Position numbers and translations under genes: made by a program. A stretch of 15,090 nucleotides of DNA from a virus. A model generated the notes under the pieces. That model did no database searches and was not told the DNA's origin. It worked only from the letters and a program-made list of their open reading frames with translations. The stretch lies in the IMG/VR virus record IMGVR_UViG_3300025289_000020; one strand, written 5' to 3'. This document shows, piece after piece, positions 736 through 15,090 of this stretch (position 1 is its first letter; each line of letters starts with the position of its first letter).

Positions 736-950
736 TCGCCCTCTACGCCGTCGGCGCAGCCTACGCCGTCGCCATCGTCCACGCGGCGGGCCGCCTCTGC
801 CTCCTTGCCTGCGCCCACGGGCTACGCAACGCGCTACCCGCCCTCGAACACGCACACCCGCAACCCCCGTCAGAATGGCCCCTCAGCCTGCCTCACGCGC
901 TTTCAGCGCACCCGCCTGCGCCGGTGCTACAATGGCCGCGTGATAACTGA
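732..950 (+). CDS. Small membrane protein (holin or SAR-like segment candidate), 72 aa
   Basis: GTG overlaps the upstream stop (GTGA). The N-terminus VIALYAVGAAYAVAIVHAAGRLCLLACA is a Gly/Ala-rich hydrophobic helix. GC3 is good for the first ~30 codons, then declines. Lies directly upstream of the endolysin. Confidence 0.4.
   Translation: MIALYAVGAAYAVAIVHAAGRLCLLACAHGLRNALPALEHAHPQPPSEWPLSLPHALSAHPPAPVLQWPRDN
925..933 (+). promoter_or_regulatory. Extended -10-like element TGCTACAAT
   Basis: TGnTAnAAT ends 6 nt before GTG 940, which has no Shine-Dalgarno. This is compatible with a leaderless endolysin transcript. Confidence 0.35.
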
Positions 951-1668
951 CCTCACCGCCCGCTTTCCGATCCCCCGCGCCTGGCCCCGCCAGACCAGCC
1001 GCCCCGCCGACATCGACACCAACGCCATCCACCACACCGCCACCCTCTACCTCTCGCCCACCGCCGCCGAAGCCGACGAGATCAACCAGATCGCCGTCAT
1101 TCACCAGTACCACATCGGCCGCGGCTTCGCTGGCTTCGGCTACCACGGCATCGCCTTTCCCAGCAGTCGCGCCTACATCGTCACGCCCTTCGACCAGTGG
1201 GGCGCCAACGTCGCCGAAGAGAACGACCACGTCCACGGCTACGCCGCCGCCGGCACCTACACCACCACGCCACCCCCGCCGGCCCTCCACACCGGACTCG
1301 CCCGCCTCGTCGCCGCCGGACGCCGCTACCTCGGCCGCACCGTCCCCGACAGACCGCACCGCCATTGGGGCGGCACCACCTGCCCGGGCGAACCGTGGGC
1401 GACCTGGGTGCCCGCCCTCACCATCCTCGCATCCAAGGAGGACGACACCATGACCCCACAACAGCAGAAAGAGCTCGCCGCCGCCACCGCCGCCGTCACC
1501 GCCCTCCGCAGGCGCGCCGCCTACGACGCCCACATCGGCGTCCTCCTGCAGTACGCCGGCCAGCTCACCGCCCTCGGCTCCACCGACCCCCGCCCCGTCC
1601 TCGCCGCCCTCAAGAAGCGCATCGCCACCTTCGACGCCGCCCTCGCCTCTGGAGCCGCCCATGCCTAA
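940..1668 (+). CDS. Endolysin, N-acetylmuramoyl-L-alanine amidase (Amidase_2/PGRP type)
   Basis: Motifs AIHHTAT, GFAGFGYHGIAF and HRHWGGTTCPGEPW match the zinc-ligand and signature layout of T7-lysozyme-type amidases. The start is uncertain: GTG 940 gives the usual ~30 aa before the HH motif, but the frame is open and shows good GC3 from TTG 805. Confidence 0.85.
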   Translation: MITDLTARFPIPRAWPRQTSRPADIDTNAIHHTATLYLSPTAAEADEINQIAVIHQYHIGRGFAGFGYHGIAFPSSRAYIVTPFDQWGANVAEENDHVHGYAAAGTYTTTPPPPALHTGLARLVAAGRRYLGRTVPDRPHRHWGGTTCPGEPWATWVPALTILASKEDDTMTPQQQKELAAATAAVTALRRRAAYDAHIGVLLQYAGQLTALGSTDPRPVLAALKKRIATFDAALASGAAHA

Positions 1669-2357: not shown

Positions 2358-2441
2358 ATGCGCAACCTGCTCACGATCGCCGCCATCTACGGCATCGGCG
2401 TCGCCACCGGCATCACCTACTCCCTGCTCGCCCTCACGTAG
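2358..2441 (+). CDS. 27-aa hydrophobic peptide
   Basis: GGAGG (2346-2350) lies 7 nt before the ATG. Sequence MRNLLTIAAIYGIGVATGITYSLLALT is essentially a single TM helix. Confidence 0.5.
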   Translation: MRNLLTIAAIYGIGVATGITYSLLALT

Positions 2442-3110
2442 GCTTTGGCGCACCAGCCGGACCCGGCGACGCCCATCGCTCGCCCCACCGCGTAGCGGCC
2501 CAGCACGACGCCATACCGGCCCCCGCCCGGCAGCGCCGACGCCTGTGCCCGCAGGGCCGGGCACGTCGCTTCGCTCCTCACTGGGCGGCGGCTCGCCGGG
2601 CCACCACCTTTCTTCACCCCCGCCTGCCGGCCACGTCGGGCGGCTCTTCGCGGGCAGGGCGCCCCACCCTCGCAGGCTCCCACCACCCCACACGCCCGCT
2701 CAGCCCGCCCTCCGTCGCCTTGCATGGCGGCCCCACGGCCACGGCTCCGCGCCACCCCCGCCGCTCAGGCGGCGACCCCTCCCGCTCCGCCGGCGCCGAC
2801 CCCACAGCGCCGGCAACGACCCGTAGCTACGGCAACCTGAATCGTTTTCCGAAAAAGAACCAAAGCGGCGCGCGAGGCGCGCGTAGCGGTAGCCGGCTTC
2901 GCCGGCACTGAGGACGGTTCACCGCTCCGGCTGGGGGGCCGTGGCGGGGCTGGCCCCTTCCTGGCACGGCGTCGCCGGTCGGCAACCCTACGGGTCCTCC
3001 GCTGCGCTACGGCCCGCCCTACGGGCGGGTGCCTTCCCGCCTCCTTCCGTGCCTGGGGGGCCTTGGCCCCGCTCACTTGGCCCCCCGCCGGGGGGCGGTG
3101 AACAGGGCTG
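2442..3110. other. Large non-coding region between the end of the late/lysis operon and the first early gene
   Basis: No frame on either strand gives a credible protein (only Pro/Arg/Gly-rich translations). The + strand is C-rich at 2442-2830 and G-rich at 2867-3110, with an AT-rich core in between. Many GC hairpins. Confidence 0.6.
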
Positions 3111-3124
3111 GAAAGGGGCGTGTC

Positions 3125-3307
3125 GTGGCCGGTGCATATCGCGCGTGTCCTGGGTGTGGCCGTCGCCGCTCGTCCTGGCTGGCCTGCGGTCACTGCGGCT
3201 GGCGCTGGCCTCTCTGTTCGTGTGGTTTGCCGTTGGGGCCGTCCGGCTGCGCCCGGTCCGGCTGTGGCGGTCAGTCGGCGCTGTTCGCGCCGGAGAAAGG
3301 GGAGTAG
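3125..3307 (+). CDS. Zinc-ribbon mini-protein A, 60 aa (CPGCG..x8..CGHCG, ends PEKGE)
   Basis: GTG lies 6 nt after GGAAAGGGG. Shares Cys spacing and the C-terminal PEKG(E/D) with the 3549..3704 product. Its last codons form the SD of the next gene. GC3 does not discriminate it from the overlapping frame of ORF 2941..3552. Confidence 0.55.
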   Translation: MAGAYRACPGCGRRRSSWLACGHCGWRWPLCSCGLPLGPSGCARSGCGGQSALFAPEKGE

Positions 3308-3309
3308 TC

Positions 3310-3552
3310 GTGTTCTCGGAGATCATCGTCGCAACCTGCCGTGAGTGCGGAGAGCACACACACCTGCGGCTGTGGCCGGAGCGGGCGGTCTGCCTGTCCT
3401 GCGGCGGGAGCTGGTGCCGGTGCTGCAACCCGCCGGTGACCCTTCCGCCCGCCGGGGCGGCCCCCTGCCCGGCGCAAGACTTCAAGCGCGCCCTGCAGGC
3501 CACCTACGGCGGGCGTATAGAAGAGCACGCGCGCTACTGGGTGGCGTCGTGA
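3310..3552 (+). CDS. Cys-rich zinc-ribbon protein, 80 aa
   Basis: GTG lies 5 nt after GGAGAAAGGGGAG. Contains CRECG...CLSCG plus CRCC. Its stop overlaps the next start (GTGA). Confidence 0.7.
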   Translation: MFSEIIVATCRECGEHTHLRLWPERAVCLSCGGSWCRCCNPPVTLPPAGAAPCPAQDFKRALQATYGGRIEEHARYWVAS

Positions 3553-3704
3553 TTGGCCTGTGGTCCTGCCCACGCTGCGGCTCGCTCTACACCGCCGTAC
3601 CGCAGCAAGATAGAAGCCCGCGCGCACCGTCGGTTTGCGGACACTGCACCGTCACCCTCCGGCCCCTGGCAACCGTCCCGGAGAAAGGGGACCAGCGGCC
3701 ATGA
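3549..3704 (+). CDS. Zinc-ribbon mini-protein B, 51 aa (CPRCG...CGHC, ends PEKGDQRP)
   Basis: GTGA overlap with the upstream gene. Paralogous layout to 3125..3307. Its C-terminal codons again spell GGAGAAAGGGGA, the SD for the next gene. Confidence 0.65.
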   Translation: MIGLWSCPRCGSLYTAVPQQDRSPRAPSVCGHCTVTLRPLATVPEKGDQRP

Positions 3705-3979
3705 GCCGCTCGGCCCGCCGCTGGCCGCCGCTGGACACGCCGCCGGAGCGCCGCCCTCCGGCCCCGGCTCCCCGCCAGCCTTCGCCCTGGTGGCCCGTCG
3801 CCGGTGTCGCCGCTGCCGCGCTACTCGTCGCAGCCGGCAGCTCCCGGCCCGGCCCGTCGCCGGAGGAATCCATACGGGCATACGCCTGCCAGCACCAGAC
3901 GGACGCCGTGCTGGCCTGGGCGGAAGACCGGGGCGTCCGGGTAGACGTGCGGGAGTGCCCGCCGAGAGAGGAGAAGTAG
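3701..3979 (+). CDS. Membrane-anchored protein, 92 aa
   Basis: ATGA overlap, with the SD 9 nt upstream. Pro/Arg-rich N-terminus, then TM WWPVAGVAAAALLVAAG, then a small C-terminal domain. Confidence 0.7.
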   Translation: MSRSARRWPPLDTPPERRPPAPAPRQPSPWWPVAGVAAAALLVAAGSSRPGPSPEESIRAYACQHQTDAVLAWAEDRGVRVDVRECPPREEK

Positions 3980-3981
3980 CC

Positions 3982-4392
3982 ATGCCCACCCTGAACGGAG
4001 CCTGCCCCGGCTGCGGCCAGCCCCTCACCCTGGAGGTAGCCGTCCGCACAGCCCCGCGCGGCTTCACGTCCGACAGCCGGCAGGTACAACTCGTCGGCGA
4101 CCGGGAGCCCGGCCAGGGCGGCACGCCCACACCGGACAACGAAGAGCCCTACGGCACCACCCGCGCCGCTGCCCCGCACTACTCCGGCGTCAGCCGTCCC
4201 CACCCGTCGCCGGTCAACTCGCAGGACGGACGCCCCACCTGCCCGGAGTGCGGCCTGGACGGCGCGCGGCTGGAGCAGGTCGCCAAGAAGAGCGGTCGCG
4301 CCTTCACCGCCTGGAAGTGCATCAACACCGAGTGCGACCAGAACGACGAAATCATCCCGGGTACCTTCCGCTGGGGAAAGGCAGCGGCGTAG
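3982..4392 (+). CDS. Zinc-finger protein, 136 aa, with a topoisomerase-type C4 finger-like C-terminus
   Basis: GAGGAG lies 8 nt before the ATG. N-terminal CPGCG. C-terminal CPECG..x20..KCINTEC with GRAFTAWKC resembles the CPxCG...F..C...C pattern of Topo I C4 fingers (from memory, not searched). Confidence 0.8.
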   Translation: MPTLNGACPGCGQPLTLEVAVRTAPRGFTSDSRQVQLVGDREPGQGGTPTPDNEEPYGTTRAAAPHYSGVSRPHPSPVNSQDGRPTCPECGLDGARLEQVAKKSGRAFTAWKCINTECDQNDEIIPGTFRWGKAAA

Positions 4393-5094: not shown

Positions 5095-5124
5095 ACGCTC
5101 ACCCGCTTAGACCTATTGACAGTC

Positions 5125-5160
5125 GCACCGCCCTGGCGCTATCGTCGGGGCGGTGCTTTT
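5125..5160 (+). terminator. Intrinsic terminator: 9-bp GC stem (GCACCGCCC / GGGCGGTGC) followed by TTTT
   Basis: Sits 30 nt after the 5094 stop. It is the only stem plus T-tract I found in the window and closes the early module. Confidence 0.7.
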
Positions 5161-5291
5161 GCGAGGCCAGCGCGGGCGGCCCGCCTGCCACCAACGGCAG
5201 CCAGGGCCGCCCGCGCCGGGCCAACAGCAGGGGCACCGAGAGGAGACGGCCATTGCAGAGCACCACCGCAGAGGCCAGAGCCACCGGCCCA

Positions 5292-5300
5292 TGCTATAAT
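5292..5300 (+). promoter_or_regulatory. Extended -10 element TGCTATAAT
   Basis: Perfect TGnTATAAT in a ~70% GC genome, located in a non-coding gap. No good -35. Confidence 0.45.
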
Positions 5301-5365
5301 CGCGGCCAGCACCAACCCCAGGGAGAACAGGGCAGCCGGGCAGGTTCGCACTATACATGTTCGCA

Positions 5366-5394
5366 TCGACGGCTGCCCCCGCTCGGCGTAGAAT
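5366..5394 (+). promoter_or_regulatory. Promoter-like TCGACG - 17 nt - TAGAAT
   Basis: The spacing and hexamers fit a sigma70/SigA-type promoter. The -10 ends 9 nt before the coding-like segment that opens at 5404. Confidence 0.45.
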
Positions 5395-5403
5395 CGGCCC
5401 CAA

Positions 5404-5626
5404 TTGTACGCCCCCGACCGGCTCCAACTCCAGCTACTCCGCCAGCTCGCCCAGACCGCCGGATACACCGGCCCCGGCCTGATCTGCCTCGACTGCCCAC
5501 GCCCCCAACACCTGCCCCCCTTCCTCCCCTTCTTCCTCCCAATCCACGTCCGGGAGCACCTGGAACGCTGGCCCACCCACGCCCTGCGCTGGTGGTGCTG
5601 GACGTGCTGCGCGTTTGATTGTACCC
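5404..5626 (+). CDS. Coding-like zinc-ribbon segment (CLDC..x32..CWTCC) with a TTG start and no in-frame stop
   Basis: High C-ending GC3 from 5404 to about 5612 in this frame, after which GC3 collapses. The frame stays open to 6459. The next real gene (ATG 5627) is in the +1 frame. Confidence 0.3.
5610..5626 (-). repeat. 17-bp motif copy A (minus orientation): reverse complement GGGTACAATCAAACGCG
   Basis: 16/17 identical to copy B at 6075..6091 in inverted orientation. Abuts ATG 5627. Confidence 0.85.
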
Positions 5627-5905
5627 ATGCCCAACGACTCGATTCAGCCCACGTTCAACGAATCCGAGGCCATCTCCAACGACGCCGCCCTGCAGCAGCT
5701 CCTCAAGTGGTACCCCGGCCAGGAGGCCCAGATCATCGCCGCCTACCGCCGCCGGCACCCACACGAAGGCTGCAACTGCCCCTGGCAGAACCGGAAGGCG
5801 GGCCGCTGCTGCACCCTGGACCGCATCAACCCGCCCCCCCAGGCCAGCCGCCGAAGCAGAAGCCCAAGCCGCGCAGGCCAGTACAGGGAGCAGATAAACC
5901 GGTGA
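5627..5905 (+). CDS. Hypothetical protein, 92 aa, with CNC...CC cysteines and a basic tail
   Basis: ATG start with high GC3. Its stop overlaps the next start (GTGA). No SD; motif copy A occupies the upstream 17 nt. Confidence 0.7.
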   Translation: MPNDSIQPTFNESEAISNDAALQQLLKWYPGQEAQIIAAYRRRHPHEGCNCPWQNRKAGRCCTLDRINPPPQASRRSRSPSRAGQYREQINR

Positions 5906-6459
5906 GCCCCCGGGGAGGGCGCCGCCCCGGCGCAGGCGCGCCACGGGGTAACAAGAACCGCCTCCTGCACGGCCTCTACTCCGGCGACCCGGAGACCCGC
6001 CGCCTCTCCCGCGCCCTCGCCGCCCTGCCCGCCGACGTCCGGCAGCAGCTCCTCCCCTACGTCAAGGAGGGCCTGGGTACAATCAAACGCCGCCTCGCCT
6101 GGGTGGCCCCGCACCTGCGCCACCAGGAGCCCACCGGCAACCTCGTCCACTTCCCTACCGTCACAACAACAACACCGCCGGTTCAATCAAACGCCCACCT
6201 GGCCCCGCTGGTCCTGCAGCTCACCGCCGCCGGCCTGTTCGGCGCCGGTCCCTTCGTCCACGACCACGCCCCAGCCGCCGGCGTCATCTGCGAGGTCCTC
6301 CAGTACATCCACGACCACCCGGAGGGGATCGCCAACCCCGGCGCCCTCATCCGATACCTCGTCCACCAGGAACTCGCAGAGCCAGCCGCGGGCGGCGGAC
6401 TCCGCTGCCCCTACTGCCGGTGGACAGACCACCGGCAAAGAGAGGAGAGCACCTCATGA
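5902..6459 (+). CDS. Terminase small subunit-like protein, 185 aa (N-terminal GAPRGNKNRLLHGLYS motif)
   Basis: GTG start. The GxPxGNxNxxxHGxY motif recurs in YjcR/PBSX-type small terminases (from memory). Size and position upstream of TerL fit. C-terminal CPYC. Confidence 0.6.
   Translation: MSPRGGRRPGAGAPRGNKNRLLHGLYSGDPETRRLSRALAALPADVRQQLLPYVKEGLGTIKRRLAWVAPHLRHQEPTGNLVHFPTVTTTTPPVQSNAHLAPLVLQLTAAGLFGAGPFVHDHAPAAGVICEVLQYIHDHPEGIANPGALIRYLVHQELAEPAAGGGLRCPYCRWTDHRQREESTS
6075..6091 (+). repeat. 17-bp motif copy B: GGGTACAATCAAACGCC
   Basis: Inside the TerS-like gene, encoded with atypical codons ggt aca atc aaa. Confidence 0.85.
6179..6195 (+). repeat. 17-bp motif copy C: CGGTTCAATCAAACGCC
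   Basis: 15/17 identical to copy B and 104 bp downstream in direct orientation. Encoded with atypical codons gtt caa tca. Confidence 0.8.
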
Positions 6460-6748: not shown

Positions 6749-6948
6749 AACCCCACTACAGCGCCCGCCTGGAACGCTGCACCCAGTCCACCGACAGCAA
6801 GACCGGCGGGCCCCTCCCCCTGCGCATCCAGATCGCCATCCCCTCATACGCCACCGGCCTGGCCATCCTGCGCGACCTGTCCGCAGGCCGCGTCCCTATC
6901 ACCATCGTCATCGAGGCCGTCCAGGCCCACCTACCGGAACCCGAATGA
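6745..6948 (+). CDS. Hypothetical protein, 67 aa
   Basis: ATGA overlaps at both ends, with good GC3. Function unknown. Confidence 0.7.
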   Translation: MKPHYSARLERCTQSTDSKTGGPLPLRIQIAIPSYATGLAILRDLSAGRVPITIVIEAVQAHLPEPE

Positions 6949-8309
6949 CCATCCAGCTCCGCCCCTACCAGGCCGAGCCGGCGCGGGCCATCATCCGCGA
7001 CGCCCGCCTCGGCGGCGGGCACACATTCACCGTCCTGATGAGCCGGCAGGCCGGCAAGAACGAGCTCAGCGCCTGGATCGAGAAGGTCCTCCTCGTCGCC
7101 AACATGGCCAACCCCCACGCGATCGGCGTCAAGACCGCACCCACCCTGACGCCGCAGCTCCGCAACAGCATCCGCCGCCTGCGGGCCCACCTGGACGCCG
7201 CCGGCTTCCGCAACGCCTACGCCCTGGAGGAGGGCCACCTCCTCACCCTGGGCGCCGCCGCCTGGAACTTCCTCAGCGCCGCCCCCGGCGCCTCCGTCCT
7301 GGGCGCCACCGCCGGCCTGCTGCTGGAGGCCGACGAGGCCCAGGATATCGACCCCGACCGCTTCACAAAGGACTTCCGGCCGATGGCGGCCAGCACCGCC
7401 GCCACGACCGTCCTCTACGGCACACCCTGGAGCGAGGACGACCTGCTGCTGGCCACCGTCGCCGAGAACAAGGCGCGAGAGCGCAAGGACGGCCTCCAGC
7501 GGCACTTCGAATACCCCTGGCAGGAGGTGGCGAAGCACGTCCCCGCCTACGCCCGCTACGTGGAGGCTGAGCGCATCCGGCTCGGCCCCACGCACCCCCT
7601 GTTCACCAGCCAGTACGACCTCACGCCACTGCCGGGCACGGGCCGCCTGCTGTCGCCCGCCCAGCTCACCAACCTCCAGGGCAGCCACGACCGCCGCCAC
7701 TTCGCCAAGAAGGGCGAGACCCACGCCGCCGGCCTGGACGTCGCCGGCGAGGAAACCGACCCGCTCAGCCCCCGCGACCGCGACCACAACGTCCTGTGGA
7801 TCAGCCGCGTCACACCCGGCCCCAAGCACTCCCTCCCACTGTCCGAGACCGTCGCCATCTACGCCTGGCAGGGCACCGGCCACGACGCCCTCTACGCGCA
7901 CCTCCACCGCCTGCTACGCGACGTCTGGAACATCGCCCACGTCGCCGTGGACGCCACCGGCGCCGGCGAGGGCATGGCGATCCTCCTGGCCCGCTCCCTC
8001 GGCGAGCACCGCGTCACCGCCTACAAGTTCACCGAGCAGAGCAAGTCCCACCTGGGCTACCAGCTCCAGGCCGCAGCGAACACCGGCGCCCTCAAGCTCT
8101 GGAAGGCCGACGGCGGCGCGGAGCACAACGAGGCCCAGCGCCAACTTCGGCTCTGCCGCGCCGAGTACCGGCCAAACCGCACGGTCCGCTGGCACGTCGA
8201 CCCCAGCCAAGGGCACGACGACTACGTCGCCGCCGCCGCCCTCGCGGTCGAGGCCGCGACCCAGGCGCAGCCCCGCCGCGCCCGTGGTAGAATCCCCACA
8301 GCGCCATGA
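6945..8309 (+). CDS. terL: Terminase large subunit, 454 aa
   Basis: Walker A-like SRQAGKNE, Walker B-like LLLEADEAQD, and C-terminal acidic nuclease-type motifs GLDVAGEE, VAVDATGAGEG and GHDDYVAAA. Located directly upstream of the portal gene. Confidence 0.9.
   Translation: MTIQLRPYQAEPARAIIRDARLGGGHTFTVLMSRQAGKNELSAWIEKVLLVANMANPHAIGVKTAPTLTPQLRNSIRRLRAHLDAAGFRNAYALEEGHLLTLGAAAWNFLSAAPGASVLGATAGLLLEADEAQDIDPDRFTKDFRPMAASTAATTVLYGTPWSEDDLLLATVAENKARERKDGLQRHFEYPWQEVAKHVPAYARYVEAERIRLGPTHPLFTSQYDLTPLPGTGRLLSPAQLTNLQGSHDRRHFAKKGETHAAGLDVAGEETDPLSPRDRDHNVLWISRVTPGPKHSLPLSETVAIYAWQGTGHDALYAHLHRLLRDVWNIAHVAVDATGAGEGMAILLARSLGEHRVTAYKFTEQSKSHLGYQLQAAANTGALKLWKADGGAEHNEAQRQLRLCRAEYRPNRTVRWHVDPSQGHDDYVAAAALAVEAATQAQPRRARGRIPTAP
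8285..8293 (+). promoter_or_regulatory. Extended -10-like TGGTAGAAT inside the last codons of terL
   Basis: The last 10 terL codons use atypical cgt ggt aga aca cca, and the element ends 12 nt before portal ATG 8306, which has no SD. Confidence 0.3.
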
Positions 8310-9655
8310 CCGACCAGACGCCACTCCCCCACCTCCTCAAGAACCGGGACCGCGACCGCCTCCAGCAGTACACCAGCGCCCTGGCCTTCTACGAGGGCAA
8401 GCAGTGGCCGGCGCCAGAGGCGCGCACCCGCAGCGTCCGCCGCCTCACGCTGAACTACGCCAAGGCCATCGTCAACAAGACCGCCACGTTCACCATGAAG
8501 GGCGCCGCCGTCAACGCCAGCCCCCGCTCCGACAGCGACGAGGACATCGCCGCCGCCGCCGCGGTCGAGCACTACCTGGCGGAGCTGGCCCACAACAACG
8601 GCCTGGCCCGCCTGGACCTGGTGACCGAGATCGACGCCGCCGTCCTCGGCGACGCCGCCTACAAGGTCACCTGGGACACCGCAGAGGAGCGCGTCGCCAT
8701 CACCGCCCCCGACGTGCGCGGCCTCTTCCCCTGGCCGCACCCGACCGACCCCACGCGGTTTACCCGCGTCGCCCATCGCTACACCCTCCCCCGCGAGGAC
8801 GTCATCGCCCTGTGGGGCATCGCCCCACGCGACAAGACCGCCGAAATCATCGAGGACTGGACCGACGCCACCCTGGACATCTGGATCGACGGCGGCCCCA
8901 CGCCCACCCTCACCCAGGTCAACCCCTACGCCCTCATCCCCCTCGTCATCTACCCCAACAACCAGGTCCCCAAACGGTGGTGGGGCGAATCCGACGTTCT
9001 CCCCCTCCAGGAGATCGCACAGGAGCTCAACCGCCAGATGACCCGCGTCAGCAACATCCTGGAGCTCTCCGGCTTCCCGATCGCCGTCCTGGAGAACGTG
9101 GACGAGGCCACCGACATCGCCGCCGTCCCCGGCGCCGTCTGGGAGCTGCCCAGGGAGGCCAAGGCCTACCTGCTGGACCTCCTGCAGGGCGGCGGCGTCA
9201 AGCTCCACCTGGACTACACCGACCACCTCCTGCGCGCCCTCCACGACATCAGCGAGACCCCCCGGACCGCTTTCGGCAACGTGGACCGCGAGCTCTCCGG
9301 CGTCGCCCTGCAGGTCGAGCTGCAGCCCCTCCTCCAGAAGGTCGACCGGAAGCGCACCATTCGCGGCGACGCCTACACCCAGCGCGCCGCTCTCGCCCTG
9401 CGCCTCTCCGACCTCTTCACCGGCACCGCCTATACCGACTCCATCGCCGGCCTCACGGCGTCCTGGGACCCGCCCGGCCCCGCAGACAGGACGCGGGACA
9501 TCGAAGACGAGACCGCGCTCGTCACCAACGGCCTGTCTAGCCGCCGCAGCAGCATGGGGCGCTTGCAGACCCCCGACCCAGACAAAGAGCTGGCGACCTG
9601 GCAGGAGGAGACCCGCGCTATCGAGGCCTTGACATCAGCGCCTAAACGCGGGTAA
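8306..9655 (+). CDS. Portal protein, 449 aa
   Basis: Immediately follows terL (ATGA overlap) and has typical size. N-terminal YEGKQW...LTLNYAKAIVNK resembles SPP1 gp6-type portals (from memory). Confidence 0.85.
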   Translation: MTDQTPLPHLLKNRDRDRLQQYTSALAFYEGKQWPAPEARTRSVRRLTLNYAKAIVNKTATFTMKGAAVNASPRSDSDEDIAAAAAVEHYLAELAHNNGLARLDLVTEIDAAVLGDAAYKVTWDTAEERVAITAPDVRGLFPWPHPTDPTRFTRVAHRYTLPREDVIALWGIAPRDKTAEIIEDWTDATLDIWIDGGPTPTLTQVNPYALIPLVIYPNNQVPKRWWGESDVLPLQEIAQELNRQMTRVSNILELSGFPIAVLENVDEATDIAAVPGAVWELPREAKAYLLDLLQGGGVKLHLDYTDHLLRALHDISETPRTAFGNVDRELSGVALQVELQPLLQKVDRKRTIRGDAYTQRAALALRLSDLFTGTAYTDSIAGLTASWDPPGPADRTRDIEDETALVTNGLSSRRSSMGRLQTPDPDKELATWQEETRAIEALTSAPKRG

Positions 9656-9658
9656 GCT
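9629..9658 (+). promoter_or_regulatory. Promoter-like TTGACA - 18 nt - TAAGCT
   Basis: Perfect -35 and a TANNNT -10 ending 9 nt before ATG 9668, which lacks an SD. Would drive the scaffold and capsid genes. Confidence 0.35.
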
Positions 9659-9667
9659 CCTCACGAA

Positions 9668-10090
9668 ATGCCAGACGCTAACGGCAACCCCACCCCCGAA
9701 GAGCAGGCGGCCGCAGAACAAGCCACCGCCGCCCAGCCGCAGGCCGACACCCAAGCCCTCACCGAACAGCTCACCCAAGCCCAGGCCCGCAACCTGGAGC
9801 TGGAGACCGCCGCCATCCGCGCCGCCAACCCCGACCTCCCGGACGCGGCCTTCGCCGGCGACGACCTCGCGGCCATCCAGGCCAGCGTCGCCACCGCCAG
9901 GGCCGTTGCCGACCACGTCCGCGAGCAAACCGTTGCCAACGGCGCCGCCACGCCCGCCGCCGCCGCCGCCGCCGTCGCCGCCGCTGCAGCCGCGACCCCC
10001 ACAGGCGCCGGCGCACAGCGAACGCCCCCCGCACCCGAGGGGCTGAAGGGCATCGACCGCATCAAGTTCGGGCTCGCCCAGAGGAGCTAA
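9668..10090 (+). CDS. Scaffolding protein candidate, 140 aa
   Basis: Lies between the portal and capsid genes. Ala/Gln/Glu-rich helical sequence, low complexity. Confidence 0.65.
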   Translation: MPDANGNPTPEEQAAAEQATAAQPQADTQALTEQLTQAQARNLELETAAIRAANPDLPDAAFAGDDLAAIQASVATARAVADHVREQTVANGAATPAAAAAAVAAAAAATPTGAGAQRTPPAPEGLKGIDRIKFGLAQRS

Positions 10091-10093
10091 CCA

Positions 10094-11059
10094 ATGGCCC
10101 TGACACTCGCCGAAGCCGACAAGTACAGCACCAATCAGGTCCTCGTCGGCGTCGCCGAGATCACAATGGACCAGAACCCGCTCCTCGGCCTCCTGCCGTT
10201 CACCCCCATTCGCGGCAACGCCCTCCAGTACCAGCGCGAGCTCGCCGCCAGCGCCCCCACCTTCATCGCCACCGGCGGCACAGTCACCGAAGGCGTCCCC
10301 ACCACCAGCCTCATCACCACAGCCCTTAAAATCCTCATCGGCGACGCCGACATCGACAACTTCCTCCGCGTCACCAGGTCGAAAGACCAGGACCTCCGCG
10401 CCGAGCTGCTGGCAATCAAGGCCCGCAACTTCGCCGACACCTGGGGCGACGCCGCCATCTACGGCAGCATCGACGCCGCCGCCGCGCAGTTCGACGGCCT
10501 CCACGAGATCATCGCCGACGACGTAACCGCCCAGCAGCTCCACGCAGGCTCCGTCGCCACGCCAGGCGTAGGAACCTTCACCCTGCTTCGCGAACTGATC
10601 GACCTCATCCGGCCCCGGCCCACCGTCCTGATCATGAGCCGCCGCACCCGGCGCGGCATCCAGAAGCTCGCCGTCTCCCAGGGCTGGGACCTGGCCCTAA
10701 CGAACGTCGCCGGCATCGACCGCCAGGTCCAGACGTTCAACGAAGTCCCCATCCTCCCCTGCGACTTCATAACCGACACCGAGACCATCGCCAGCTCCGC
10801 CTTCGCCGCCAAGACCGGCGGCACCGCCTCCAGCATCTTCGCCTGCCGGCTGGCCGAAGACGGCCTGTTCGGCATCTCCGCCGACGACCCCAACGCCCAG
10901 GACGACCTTGAGCGCATCATCCAGGTCGAAGAGGTCGGCGCCCTGGAGACCCAGGACGCCCGCCGCACCCGCCTGAAGGCCTACACCGCCCTCTGCGTCA
11001 AGGCCAGCCAGGCGATCGGCCGGATTGACGGCATCTCCTCCGGCGACTGGACCAACTAA
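10094..11059 (+). CDS. Major capsid protein candidate, 321 aa
   Basis: GAGGAG lies 7 nt upstream. Position after the scaffold gene, size typical for HK97-fold coat proteins, very strong GC3. No diagnostic motif read by eye. Confidence 0.75.
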   Translation: MALTLAEADKYSTNQVLVGVAEITMDQNPLLGLLPFTPIRGNALQYQRELAASAPTFIATGGTVTEGVPTTSLITTALKILIGDADIDNFLRVTRSKDQDLRAELLAIKARNFADTWGDAAIYGSIDAAAAQFDGLHEIIADDVTAQQLHAGSVATPGVGTFTLLRELIDLIRPRPTVLIMSRRTRRGIQKLAVSQGWDLALTNVAGIDRQVQTFNEVPILPCDFITDTETIASSAFAAKTGGTASSIFACRLAEDGLFGISADDPNAQDDLERIIQVEEVGALETQDARRTRLKAYTALCVKASQAIGRIDGISSGDWTN

Positions 11060-11061
11060 CC

Positions 11062-11250
11062 ATGGCGGGCATCTGGTGCCCCCGCTGCCAGACAAAGGTC
11101 CGCCTGGAACAGGACGACCAGAGCTGCAGCAACTGCGGCCGCAAACTCGTCATCGCGGCCCCCACACCCCCACCCCCGCCCCCACGCGGGAAACGCGCCC
11201 CACGCGCCAGGAAACCCACCAGCCCGCCCAGGCCAAAGCCCGCCGCCTAA
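11062..11250 (+). CDS. Zinc-ribbon protein, 62 aa, with a Pro/Arg/Lys-rich tail
   Basis: CPRC..x12..CSNCG followed by PPPPPPRGKRAPRARKPTSPPRPKPAA. The ATG lies 2 nt after the capsid stop. Confidence 0.7.
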   Translation: MAGIWCPRCQTKVRLEQDDQSCSNCGRKLVIAAPTPPPPPPRGKRAPRARKPTSPPRPKPAA

Positions 11251-11264
11251 AGGAGCGCCGCTAG

Positions 11265-11885
11265 GTGCCGACCGCGCTCGCCACCATCAGGGGCCGCCTC
11301 CAGACCGTCCTTGACGACGCCGCCGCCGCCGTCTGGACCACCGGCGAGCTCGACCAGCACATCCAGGACGCCCTCCGCGACCTCTCGCACCGCATCCCCC
11401 GCGAGCGCACCACCACTATCGCCACCACCAGCGGCAGCCGCGACGTGTCCCTGGCGACCCTCACCGAGCGCGTCCGCATCGTCGCCGTCGAGTGGCCCAC
11501 CGGCAGCGACCCCAAGAACTTCGTCGACTTCTCCGAGTGGGCCGACGTCCTGCGCATCGACAGCCTCGGCATCCCCGACGGCACCGACTGCATCATCTAC
11601 TGGCAGAGCCTCCACAGCATCAACGGCACCAAGACCCTGCCCGAGGACTACGACGACGCCCTCGTTCACGCCGCCGCCGCCCGTGCCTGCGACCAGCAGG
11701 CCGCCGACGCCTCCAACGCCCTGAACACCGGCGGCCCCCCGGCGACCCGCGACTGGCGCACCCTGGCCGCCCACTTCCGCAACCGCTACGAGGAGCGCGT
11801 CGCACCCCGTCGCGGCATCAAGCGCCGCCGCCTCTACGCCCCCGCCGAGCCCACGCCCACCCAGAACACCGACCCAGGGCCATAG
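11265..11885 (+). CDS. Structural protein, 206 aa (head-tail adaptor / tubular protein A-like by position)
   Basis: AAGGAG lies 9 nt before the GTG, with high GC3. Function inferred only from T7-like gene order and size. Confidence 0.55.
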   Translation: MPTALATIRGRLQTVLDDAAAAVWTTGELDQHIQDALRDLSHRIPRERTTTIATTSGSRDVSLATLTERVRIVAVEWPTGSDPKNFVDFSEWADVLRIDSLGIPDGTDCIIYWQSLHSINGTKTLPEDYDDALVHAAAARACDQQAADASNALNTGGPPATRDWRTLAAHFRNRYEERVAPRRGIKRRRLYAPAEPTPTQNTDPGP

Positions 11886-14113: not shown

Positions 14114-15090
14114 CCCAGCGCTTCGCCGACGACCCCCAGAGCATCCCCGGCGGCCGCATCATCGCCAAGGCCATCGTCAAGACCTACACCGCCGGCACCC
14201 ACAAGGCCGACGTGCAGCTCGTCGGCTCCCACCCCACCGTCCTGTCCGCCATCCGGGTGGCGACGGACATCCCCGCCGCCGACGTCGTGGCCGGCCGGCA
14301 ATGCACCGTCCTCTTCCTGGACCCCGCCAACCAGGACGACGCCGTGATCCTCACCATCCAGGGCGCCCTCCCGTCGGGCGGCGGCGGCGGCGTCACCTCC
14401 CACCCCGCCCTGACCAGCCTCGACTACGCCTCCGCCGGTCACACCGGCTTCGAGACCCCCACCGGCGCCCAGGCGAAGGTCGACACACACGCCGCCGCCG
14501 CCGACCCGCACACCGTCTACGGCGCCCTCGCCCAGGCCGAGACCTGGGCTGCCCTGCAGACCTTCGGCGCCGGCCTCCGCCTCTCCTCCGGCCAGGCCAT
14601 CCAGAACAGCGCCGGCGTCGACCGCATCCGCCTGGCCATCACCAGCCAGCACATCACCCTCATCGGCGACGCCAACGTCGACGGCAACCTCAAGGTCGGC
14701 ACCGGCCCCTTCGGCAACTTCGCCGCCTACAACACCAACCCGTCCACCGGCATCGTGAACATCGGCGGCAACACCGTCTTTACCCCCGCCACCGCCAGCG
14801 TCACCGGCCTCCAGTGCCAGGTCGTCGCCGCCCCGACCAGCGGAGCCCCCAACGTCATCGCCGTCGCCGGCTTCGCCAAGATCGGCGGCGGCAGCGGCGC
14901 CACCATCAGCAACCTCATCGGCCTCCAGTACTACGCCCAGGCCGGCGGCGCCCTCCCCCACACCAACGTTAAGTGCATCGAGGCCAAGGTTCAGGTCGCC
15001 AGCTTCACCGGCACCCTCACCTCCGCCATGGGCATCGACATCCCCGCCCCGCAGATCGTCGGCGGCACACCCACCGTCACCACCATGTAC
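14110..15090 (+). CDS. Tail spike/fibre protein, N-terminal 327 codons (open at the window end, continues at 2..394)
   Basis: ATG 14110 with no stop before the window end, so it is absent from the ORF track. The N-terminus GGRIIAKAIVKTYTAGTHKADVQLVG...CTVLFLDPANQDDAVILTIQG resembles gpV/gp5/Gp138-type OB-fold spike domains (from memory). The rest is Gly/Ala/Thr-rich and repetitive. Confidence 0.8.
   Translation, partial: MTQRFADDPQSIPGGRIIAKAIVKTYTAGTHKADVQLVGSHPTVLSAIRVATDIPAADVVAGRQCTVLFLDPANQDDAVILTIQGALPSGGGGGVTSHPALTSLDYASAGHTGFETPTGAQAKVDTHAAAADPHTVYGALAQAETWAALQTFGAGLRLSSGQAIQNSAGVDRIRLAITSQHITLIGDANVDGNLKVGTGPFGNFAAYNTNPSTGIVNIGGNTVFTPATASVTGLQCQVVAAPTSGAPNVIAVAGFAKIGGGSGATISNLIGLQYYAQAGGALPHTNVKCIEAKVQVASFTGTLTSAMGIDIPAPQIVGGTPTVTTMY
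14997..15090. repeat. Second copy of the 94-bp terminal overlap
   Basis: Identical to 1..94. It lies inside the spike/fibre reading frame. Confidence 0.95.

Follow-up and report, generated by a model that had tools for sequence, protein, structure and literature searches.

A conserved non-coding region in a small Chloroflexota phage as a possible replication origin and structured leader

The origins of replication (ori) of the lactococcal Ceduovirus (c2-type) phages are non-coding, lie beside the early genes and contain no open reading frame (ORF) of 100 bp or more and no ribosome-binding site (PMC7150918, citing Rakonjac et al. 2003, Schiemann et al. 2004). Two early promoters, PE1 and PE2, have been mapped on the flanks, and a non-coding transcript made from the first of them is thought to start replication there; three non-homologous types of these origins are described, and plasmids can replicate from them without phage proteins (PMC7150918). 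In this work a non-coding region, positions 2442-3109, was analysed in the viral DNA of IMG/VR record IMGVR_UViG_3300025289_000020; the whole stretch of 15,090 nucleotides is called the window here. Origins of the ColE1 type are primed by transcription, through RNA II, and run in one direction, and the ori of phage lambda lies within the initiator gene.

The region is real, conserved, modular and non-coding. Our preferred reading, tentative and held at somewhat less than an even chance, is that it would act in cis as a replication origin and would also provide the structured early leader of the genes that follow. Its general kind is already known, and the phage group is an unstudied one. To our knowledge, nothing is known about replication or gene switching in Chloroflexota phages, and the collection of 50,697 phage records that was searched holds no phage of the Chloroflexota clade in which the closest relatives are found (Dehalococcoidia, Anaerolineae).

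Conservation and parts of the non-coding region

From 2442 to about 3110 the GC content of the three codon phases is flat (0.70-0.88), against 0.90-0.98 at position 3 of real genes. ORFs of more than 50 amino acids inside the region show 30-50% amino-acid identity at the homologous place in relatives (55-88% for flanking control genes), which is lower than the nucleotide identity of the same blocks, and their reading frames are shifted between lineages by one-base indels. With flat codon-phase GC and with longer ORFs conserved on neither strand, the original prediction was right that the region has no credible ORF on either strand. Candidate coding frames were considered and rejected. A + strand peptide starting at a conserved ATG at 2724 (MAAPRPR...) meets 1-nt indels after about 8-10 codons, and its stops differ between lineages. 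Reading the block 2722-2745 on the - strand as a start of the form GGGG-N5-AUG leads to ORFs of 7, 29, 81 and 101 amino acids in different frames. Finally, in a frame across the AT-rich core (…GNLNRFPKKN…) the differences are all non-synonymous.

A homologous non-coding region was found at the same place in about twelve distinct lineages, and the more distant L015 has a counterpart (relatives are given by their L numbers). The lineages were found via the terminase, DNA patterns and neighbouring proteins. The region spans 576-813 nt in the relatives measured and is longer in L052 (about 1.18 kb) and in L015 (1.47 kb). It is retained in every relative, that is, it has the conservation on which the original prediction hinged. 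This retention, together with a right-arm fold carrying compensatory changes (see below), supports the proposal of a functional, structured non-coding region.

The terminase relatives comprise 33 IMG/VR contigs and 33 contigs of metagenome-assembled genomes (MAGs), nearly all of Chloroflexota (Dehalococcoidia, Anaerolineae), and a 12.6-kb scaffold of 'Chloroflexi bacterium RBG_16_64_32' has the same gene order as the window. Judged from such relatives, which sit in Chloroflexota MAGs, the phage is most probably a small (15 kb), podovirus-like phage of Chloroflexota bacteria. More distant homologues were sought in two IMG/VR pattern scans and one metagenome scan, which returned no lineage beyond the group defined by the large terminase (TerL) at roughly at least 60% identity; searches with the holin-like and Cys-rich proteins added few extra contigs.

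A profile of the left arm and the core (nhmmer) matches all related lineages and nowhere else among 89 loci. The insertions that part the conserved left-arm blocks include a 63-nt unit (…CTCGACTCCGCTTCGCTTCGTCTCGGCCCGCCCCCGGCAGGCAGGGTAGGTACGGCC…), present once or twice in near-identical strains: two copies were found in L085 (2680-4300) and one in the near-identical L009/L086. L006 starts inside this repeat, and its copy-number variation makes assemblies break. In the case of candidate stem P1 (Table 1), the two arms are conserved in all lineages and the enclosed loop shrinks to 3 nt in L007. L043, L040, L004, L034 and L089 have GCAAGC in P1, so that the + strand is mismatched (C.A) where the - strand can pair (G.U). 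Altogether these sequences are suggestive of a real P1 helix. The 8-bp GC hairpin at 2789-2814 is not universal, as the L009 type forms the stem only via a register shift and L007 has no stem.

The inverted repeat that follows encloses the palindrome CCGTAGCTACGG (2821-2832) in the window genome. It reads ACGAA/TTCGT in L089 and AACGAATC/GATTCGTT in L015. The AT-rich core is the lowest-GC 30-mer of the genome, with 37% GC compared to 71% overall. It is the lowest-GC 30-mer of L094 too, and the lowest-GC spot lies inside the region also in L007, L004, L033 and L015. The core motif was found in every lineage, with a variant form in L015, where the inverted repeat and core are recognisable as AACGAATC...GATTCGTTCCCCCGCAAAC.

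Two short hairpins, H1 and H2, follow the core at nearly fixed distances (Table 1). In a second clade the hairpins stand at +22 and +50 from the core and their stem sequences are unrelated; for H1 the stems are CGCGCG/CGCGCG in one clade and CGCAGC/GCTGCG in the other. A compensatory pair is seen in H1 of L009 and L043 (CGCACG/CGTGCG, G-C to A-T), and L094 is half-changed (CGCACG/CGCGCG). The stems of H2 vary as well, namely GCCGGC, GCCCGC/GCGGGC and TGCCGGCG/CGCCGGCA. Per lineage, 1-3% of the shuffled sequences contain two perfect stems of 6 bp or more. Read on the - strand, H1 resembles an intrinsic terminator and is the only such candidate in the region, with a distance to the T-run that is not conserved (3 nt in the window, 8-25 nt in relatives).

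Relatives also carry repeats and palindromes of their own. Perfect palindromes of 18-21 nt occur in the region of L033 and L052. The left arms of these two (about 4500-4560 in L033, 1570-1650 in L052) contain two elements missing from the window, an 18-nt perfect palindrome (GCACTATGCGCATAGTGC) and an AT-rich hairpin of 9 bp (AGACATAAA-CCC-TTTATGTCT). In the case of L015, the terminase is 53% identical and the structural module is inverted. Its region, with direct repeats, a long hairpin and a low-GC zone (Table 1), follows the portal gene and not the lysis genes, and it still precedes the zinc-ribbon genes. This placement indicates that the region goes with the downstream module or stands alone.

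The five GC hairpins listed in the original prediction are all present, at positions that are exact or shifted by 1-2 nt. The recurrence of short motifs that it described is likewise above chance: 4 of the 12 CTACGG copies of the genome lie in the region (0.54 expected), as do 3 of 3 copies of CGTAGC and 2 of 2 of CGCGTAGCGG. On the + strand the window-type lineages carry 5, 8, 8 and 4 copies of CTNCGG, and on the other strand 2, 0, 0 and 1. Over these four lineages (window, L033, L052, L089) this is an orientation bias of 25 copies to 3. CTNCGG as a UNCG tetraloop was rejected, because most copies cap stems of only 1-3 bp; the motif is thus a directional sequence motif and not a set of tetraloop hairpins. 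Regarding G-quadruplex motifs on the - strand, one lies in the left arm and seven in the genome, with no meaningful enrichment.

The right-arm fold and its strand

The right arm folds into a closed domain (Table 1) that includes the hairpins of the original prediction at 2935-2957, 3013-3029, 3057-3070 and 3081-3095. Its folding excess over shuffled sequences is significant (z of -2.3 on the + strand and -4.35 on the - strand). In L033 and L052 the closing helix reads GTGAACCGC/GCGGTTCAC, so that two compensatory pairs are found in a helix reaching over about 180 nt.

Among the lineages there are three types of right arm with no mutual sequence similarity. Two of them were folded, the window type (window, L033, L052 and L089) and the L009 type; the third is the L007 type. 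The consensus fold of the window type has 52 pairs. In this fold 90.5% of the cells are paired, whereas shuffles reach 80.0 +/- 1.9% (0/500); the pairs with a change on either side number 16, compared to 8.5 +/- 1.9, and slid controls leave 42-50% of cells paired. Shuffling of columns gives a z of -4.35 for the + strand and -2.99 for the - strand, with consensus energies of -49.8 and -41.0 kcal/mol. A closed domain is formed by the L009 type as well; its long-range helix has 16 bp, and six pairs of the domain are doubly changed. It is only in the right arm that conserved, compensated pairing exceeds the controls, and the sequences behind this are few.

It is important to add that no single strand emerges as the one on which the fold acts. 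P1 (five lineages), the inverted repeat (L004) and H1 (L094) contain positions where the + strand has a C.A mismatch and the - strand a G.U pair. Assignment of the strand from G.U pairs was nevertheless rejected, as two right-arm types contradict each other. Most pairs are Watson-Crick, and the same stems are consequently available on both strands and in single-stranded DNA.

Such a fold raises the question whether a new class of large structured non-coding RNA is encoded here as a free-standing unit, on either strand and acting in trans, apart from replication or the neighbouring genes. The doubly changed pairs of the right arm, stems kept while loop lengths vary (e.g. P1 and ACCC...GGGT) and the G.U-compatible mismatches of the - strand just described would fit such an RNA, and no known family matches it. 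The structure takes up only about 200 of 670 nt, however, and in this part close relatives differ by non-homologous replacement, which would be unusual for a conserved ribozyme-like RNA. Moreover, the consensus over the whole region folds weakly (-21.5 kcal/mol, covariation term positive), sliding-window alifold z-scores on left arm and core are mostly above -2, and no bracketing promoter or terminator was found. We consider a new RNA class decidedly improbable. The 'large structured RNA' of the original prediction is thereby narrowed to at most the right arm of about 200 nt, with no significant consensus structure in the left arm and no Rfam match. In detail, Rfam 15 (4227 models) gave no match in the window even at E up to 1, and a scan of six relatives gave two sub-threshold chance matches, both outside the region; the Rfam check that had been suggested thus revealed no described RNA family in the window or in these relatives.

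Strand bias, signals and competing explanations

Composition gives a further view of the region. The left arm (2442-2811) contains 50% C and 28.5% G. Its GC skew of -0.275 is close to the + strand genome mean (-0.22, standard deviation 0.09), and it is not more C-rich than the background. The right arm, with a skew of +0.011, is balanced and not G-rich, a value that still ranks in the top 3% of windows. Nowhere else in the genome is there a jump as large as the one at 2820 (delta 0.37). The original prediction of a flip from C-rich to G-rich therefore holds in the size of the jump, but not in its two sides, of which the left is ordinary for this genome and the right merely balanced; nor are the two arms complementary in composition, as had been proposed. 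Outside the 30-nt AT core the region has 77% GC. In 5 of 9 contigs the largest skew jump lies no more than 40 nt from the core, and in two more it is within about 370 nt; in L052 the jump at the core is the second-largest, and in L007 it is absent.

C strongly exceeds G at the third codon positions of all window genes (skew of -0.2 to -0.7) save the two directly right of the region (+0.09, -0.01). In L015, L016 and L082 the homologous structural genes lie on the other strand and their third-codon skew has the opposite sign (+0.0 to +0.4), and the terminase and portal genes retain -0.5 to -0.64. The sign of the skew turns with the inverted module, and the bias thus belongs to the DNA strand and not to codon choice or gene orientation. 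This suggests a replication that treats the two strands differently around the whole genome. As a side observation, the module inverted in these three relatives is the entire structural module, from scaffold to fibre, relative to terminase plus portal, which implies at least two genome architectures in the group. On inversion the capsid, adaptor and fibre genes go from about -0.6 to values between +0.0 and +0.4, an effect seen in both GC and AT skew at third positions (L015 892-4655 vs 7437-10006; L016; L082). A gradient of third-position GC skew was tried as a replication footprint and rejected: it is present in the window (rho -0.62), but gene class confounds it and L007 has no break at the core.

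Several lines of evidence argue for a replication origin. Firstly, the region is the largest non-coding stretch, always retained, in a compact 15-kb genome with overlapping genes. Secondly, it combines an AT-rich spot, hairpins held in position and a folded module adjoining the genes that follow, and in relatives it has repeats or palindromes. Thirdly, the strand bias follows the DNA strand and the largest skew jump is often at the core, although as evidence for replication the jump is a hint only. In addition, no phage replication protein is recognisable, so that a host-driven origin defined in cis is needed somewhere; among the early ORFs no replication protein was detected by family or PDB matches, structure prediction not having been run.

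Based on these observations a possible sequence of events can be proposed. Duplex opening or binding would take place at the AT-rich dyad core (2834-2863), which is flanked by the small inverted repeat. The right-arm domain of about 200 nt, along with H1 and H2, would fold once single-stranded or upon transcription, and this fold could give either a structured non-translated RNA that primes or activates replication, as on the c2 route, or single-strand hairpins for priming. The same or the next transcript would continue into the zinc-ribbon genes at 3125. The C-rich left arm would be the untranslated tail of the lysis operon, with further conserved sites.

A number of points weigh against an origin. 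The reading is built on sequence architecture and analogy, and it is from these that we infer origin function, transcription, acting strand and replication direction alike. No DnaA boxes (TTATCCACA-like) occur in the region at up to 2 mismatches, and the whole window has 3 compared to 8.8 expected. Clear iterons are absent from the window genome, which has only two-copy imperfect repeats of 72-73% identity; the combination expected for an iteron-type origin (at least three direct repeats of 17-22 bp by an AT-rich stretch, plus an initiator gene) was not found. There is no sigma-70-type promoter (-35/-10, spacing of 16-18 nt) in 2442-3124, and none was found from which a primer RNA could be made. 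The folding excess of the left arm is not significant (z of -1.6 and -1.7 on the two strands), and no significant consensus structure of this arm was detected. Covariation in the right arm stems from only 3-4 independent lineages per type, and the strand preference of the fold conflicts, being better on the + strand for the window type (alignment A4) and on the - strand for the L009 type (A5). A confounder of the skew jump is the Cys-rich gene with its G/T-rich codons, and L007, which has no jump, has other downstream genes. Lastly, a second stretch without codon-phase signal, 5095 to about 5400, holds two of the genome's three sigma-70-like sites (2043, 5116 and 5366) and could be the main promoter region or hold the origin instead.

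The most serious competing explanation is a pure transcription boundary with no replication role. Here the left arm would end the lysis operon (e.g. by Rho loading on C-rich RNA), a non-canonical promoter would lie near the AT core, and H1, H2 and the right arm would form a 5' leader that stabilises or gates zinc-ribbon translation. In line with this, the right-arm fold stops 6-15 nt ahead of the ribosome-binding site at 3110-3118, the type of right arm switches along with the downstream genes, the window-type fold is better on the + strand in both energy and z, and the C-rich left arm has no significant structure. L015 even has a good -10 (TACAAT) at the 3' end of its region, 75 nt before the first gene. 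On the other hand, the region lacks a sigma-70-like promoter, and its + strand has no canonical intrinsic terminator; the early promoters and late terminator named among the candidate roles in the original prediction were accordingly not recovered. No sigma-54 or extracytoplasmic function (ECF)-type spacing was seen by eye in the conserved 46-nt segment. With 0.6-1.5 kb the region also far exceeds the needs of a terminator, a promoter and a leader. Conserved left-arm blocks, the repeats and palindromes of the relatives, and three helices with mismatches that pair only on the - strand would be left unexplained or run counter to it. We regard this boundary as a doubtful but serious possibility. 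If it were all, the region would be ordinary phage architecture.

Elsewhere in the window, a GGGTACAATCAAACGC-like motif with a good -10 (TACAAT) occurs in three copies, two direct and one inverted, at 5611-5632 (-), 6069-6090 (+) and 6180-6208 (+), and may be a phage promoter or operator. L015 has a similar GGTACAAT...CAAAC 75 nt before the first gene past its non-coding region.

The ends of the assembly bear on another explanation. Positions 1-94 of the window are identical to 14997-15090, an exact 94-nt terminal overlap inside a coding region. This indicates a circular (or permuted) assembly with a genome of 14,996 bp, of which the non-coding region makes up 4.5%. The virion genome could then be linear and have its physical ends in this region (as a direct terminal repeat or a cos site, together with the packaging signal). 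The assembler would have collapsed these ends into a circle, and the hairpins and repeats of the region would serve concatemer processing, for which the T7 concatemer junction is a precedent. Judged by the gene order, in which small early-like genes come first and lysis last, the ends would fall exactly at this place; the circular assembly with its overlap inside a gene fits a collapsed repeat or a permuted genome; and several contigs break within the region, where L052 has a scaffold gap. These breaks, however, coincide with a strain-variable site and the repeat of variable copy number, L040 and L086 stopping exactly where variants diverge. As a sign of physical ends the contig breaks were rejected, as they fit strain variants and the repeat and share no common end. 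The terminase genes are 3.5 kb off, and the closest cultured terminase relatives, at 33% identity or less, are too distant to predict the end type. Altogether, genome ends at this place seem unlikely.

Relatives of terminase and portal (38-49% identity) were also found inside large Chloroflexota MAG contigs (L055, 379 kb; L058, 2.6 Mb; L072, L074, L079 and L081) and may be integrated prophages. This would be the argument for an attP site of a temperate phage, which we nonetheless consider highly improbable. No integrase or recombinase is among the proteins scanned from the window genome, whose - strand ORFs have no coding support, the region contains no tRNA or tRNA fragment, and no copy of this genome integrated with a junction within 2442-3110 was seen. 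In addition, four unrelated metagenome matches to the core pattern are, by our own estimate, the number expected by chance. It should be stressed that the origin, boundary, genome-end, RNA and attP readings are not mutually exclusive.

Regarding the neighbourhood, the genome has 71% GC, all supported genes are on the + strand, and no DNA-level match was found among the 50,697 phage records. The gene order is as originally described, with the amidase and two small membrane peptides upstream of the region and zinc-ribbon ORFs downstream, but the labels 'late operon' and 'early gene' are deduced from gene content only. The first downstream ORF keeps its CPGCG...CGHCG motif, with 61-87% amino-acid identity in L004, L009 and L043, and matches Pfam Zn_ribbon_3 weakly. 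Small Cys-rich zinc-ribbon proteins are unusually many, four in 15 kb (3125-3307, 3310-3552, 3985-4392 and 11062-11250), none of them with an above-threshold Pfam or a PHROG family match. Between the second of them and the ORF near 3985, the coding signal of about 430 nt (3553-3984) is weak or ambiguous.

Table 1. Coordinates of the non-coding region, its parts, surrounding genes and the corresponding region of L015 (L015 positions refer to that contig)
Feature	Position	Strand	Remark
Whole non-coding region	2442-3109		last lysis-cassette stop to ribosome-binding site of next gene
Left arm	2442-2811		conserved blocks (alignments A1, A2, MAFFT) parted by variable-length insertions
Candidate stem P1	2622-2677		GCCTGC (2622-2627) with GCAGGC (2672-2677)
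Top-conserved left-arm block GCATGGC-RR-CCCC-N-CG...CGGC	2722-2745		invariant columns in A1, A2; also L089, L094
8-bp GC hairpin GCCGGCGC-(10 nt)-GCGCCGGC	2789-2814		read directly from sequence
Inverted repeat AACGA (2815-2819)/TCGTT (2842-2846)	2815-2846		RNAalifold prediction, kept in 8-9 of 9 sequences
AT-rich core	2834-2863		dyad TTTTC-C-GAAAA inside CGTTTTCCGAAAAAG (2843-2857)
Hairpin H1 CGCGCG-AGG-CGCGCG	2869-2883		about +26 from core
Hairpin H2 GCCGGC-TTC-GCCGGC	2892-2906		offset +49/+50 from core in all close lineages
Right-arm domain, about 200 nt	2907-3105		closed by long-range helix GTTCACCGC (2917-2925)/GCGGTGAAC (3095-3103), minimum-free-energy folds
Five hairpins of the original prediction, corrected	2545-2551/2558-2564; 2935-2940/2952-2957; 3013-3019/3023-3029; 3057-3062/3065-3070; 3081-3086/3090-3095		sequence
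CTNCGG copies	2827, 2925, 2988, 3007, 3019	+	directional motif
Ribosome-binding site GGAAAGGGG	3110-3118	+	right-hand boundary of non-coding region
60-amino-acid Cys-rich zinc-ribbon ORF	3125-3307 (GTG at 3125, stop 3305-3307)	+	first gene downstream
Second zinc-ribbon ORF	3310-3552	+	downstream of 60-amino-acid ORF
Amidase endolysin	within 805-1668	+	lysis cassette
Two small membrane peptides	2162-2341, 2358-2441	+	last of lysis cassette, ending at 2441
Sigma-70-like sites in 5095-5400	5116-5145 (TTGACA-18-TATCGT), 5366-5394		sigma-70-type scan
Large terminase	6945-8309	+	recognisable gene
SPP1-type portal	8306-9655	+	recognisable gene
HK97-like capsid protein	10094-11059	+	recognisable gene
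SU10-type adaptor	11265-11885	+	recognisable gene
L015 non-coding region	10085-11555		1.47 kb
L015 direct repeats, about 100 nt	10167-10268, 10527-10629		inside L015 non-coding region
L015 second repeated pair	about 10474-10525, 10649-10700		inside L015 non-coding region
L015 hairpin, stem of about 20 bp	about 10880-10975		inside L015 non-coding region
L015 low-GC zone, 23-52% GC	11160-11290		inside L015 non-coding region

Comparison with described systems

Large phage-associated RNAs like GOLLD, ROOL and HEARO resemble the region in that they come from phage or metagenome DNA, span several hundred nucleotides and have many helices. They differ in that the region matches none of the 4227 Rfam models at E up to 1, and in that the structure in the window spans about 200 nt and is swapped between relatives. 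Lambdoid and plasmid iteron origins share with it an AT-rich spot beside repeats and inverted repeats, and relatives of the window phage carry tandem or direct repeats, but the window genome has no clear iterons and no recognisable initiator gene.

In the case of ColE1-type origins, the likeness lies in a non-coding origin region of about 0.5 kb, whose folded transcript would become the primer. One-way replication fits the strand bias of the phage group, which is independent of gene orientation and itself hints at a one-directional mode of replication. Leftward transcription would moreover yield a G-rich RNA on a C-rich template, favouring a stable RNA-DNA hybrid. Unlike ColE1, the region has no identifiable promoter, antisense RNA or RNase H site, and there is no sequence or Rfam match. 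Taken to its full extent, the origin reading becomes a host-driven, transcription-primed origin in small Chloroflexota podophages, with an exchangeable right-arm primer or leader and a fixed AT core and left arm, in which one-way replication would expose the - strand and hence cause the third-position skew by strand. As a complete package we consider this rather unlikely.

Of the systems compared, the c2-type ori resembles the region most. The early and late modules of c2 diverge from the ori, whereas the flanks in the window both read the same way. PE1 and PE2 are mapped in c2, whereas 2442-3124 has no sigma-70-type site, with the proviso that the promoter rules of the host may differ. The c2 origins are AT-rich and belong to a low-GC host, whereas the region is GC-rich save for its AT core. 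Origin activity and a transcript are demonstrated for c2, whereas for the region in the window both are proposed. As there is no homology to the c2, bIL67 or 923 origins (no DNA match in the phage records searched), the region is an analogue and not a member of this class.

The likenesses concern the architecture. Both are found in small phages, as non-coding regions of several hundred bases beside the early genes, with no real ORF or internal ribosome-binding site. In all lineages including L015 the region is directly upstream of the zinc-ribbon genes, and a structured, non-translated segment lies toward the early-gene side. Several types with no cross-similarity occupy the same place, with high conservation within a type; here there are three right-arm types, of which two have conserved folds. 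The c2 ori needs no phage protein, and in the window phage none is recognisable.

The conserved region of 0.6-1.5 kb, with its core, positional hairpins and swappable folded module, is a concrete fragment to clone, and it could serve as a replicon or leader in a phylum for which genetic tools are lacking. Should a transcription-primed origin be confirmed here, phages of this phylum would have their first described origin, and the c2 ori a GC-rich counterpart.

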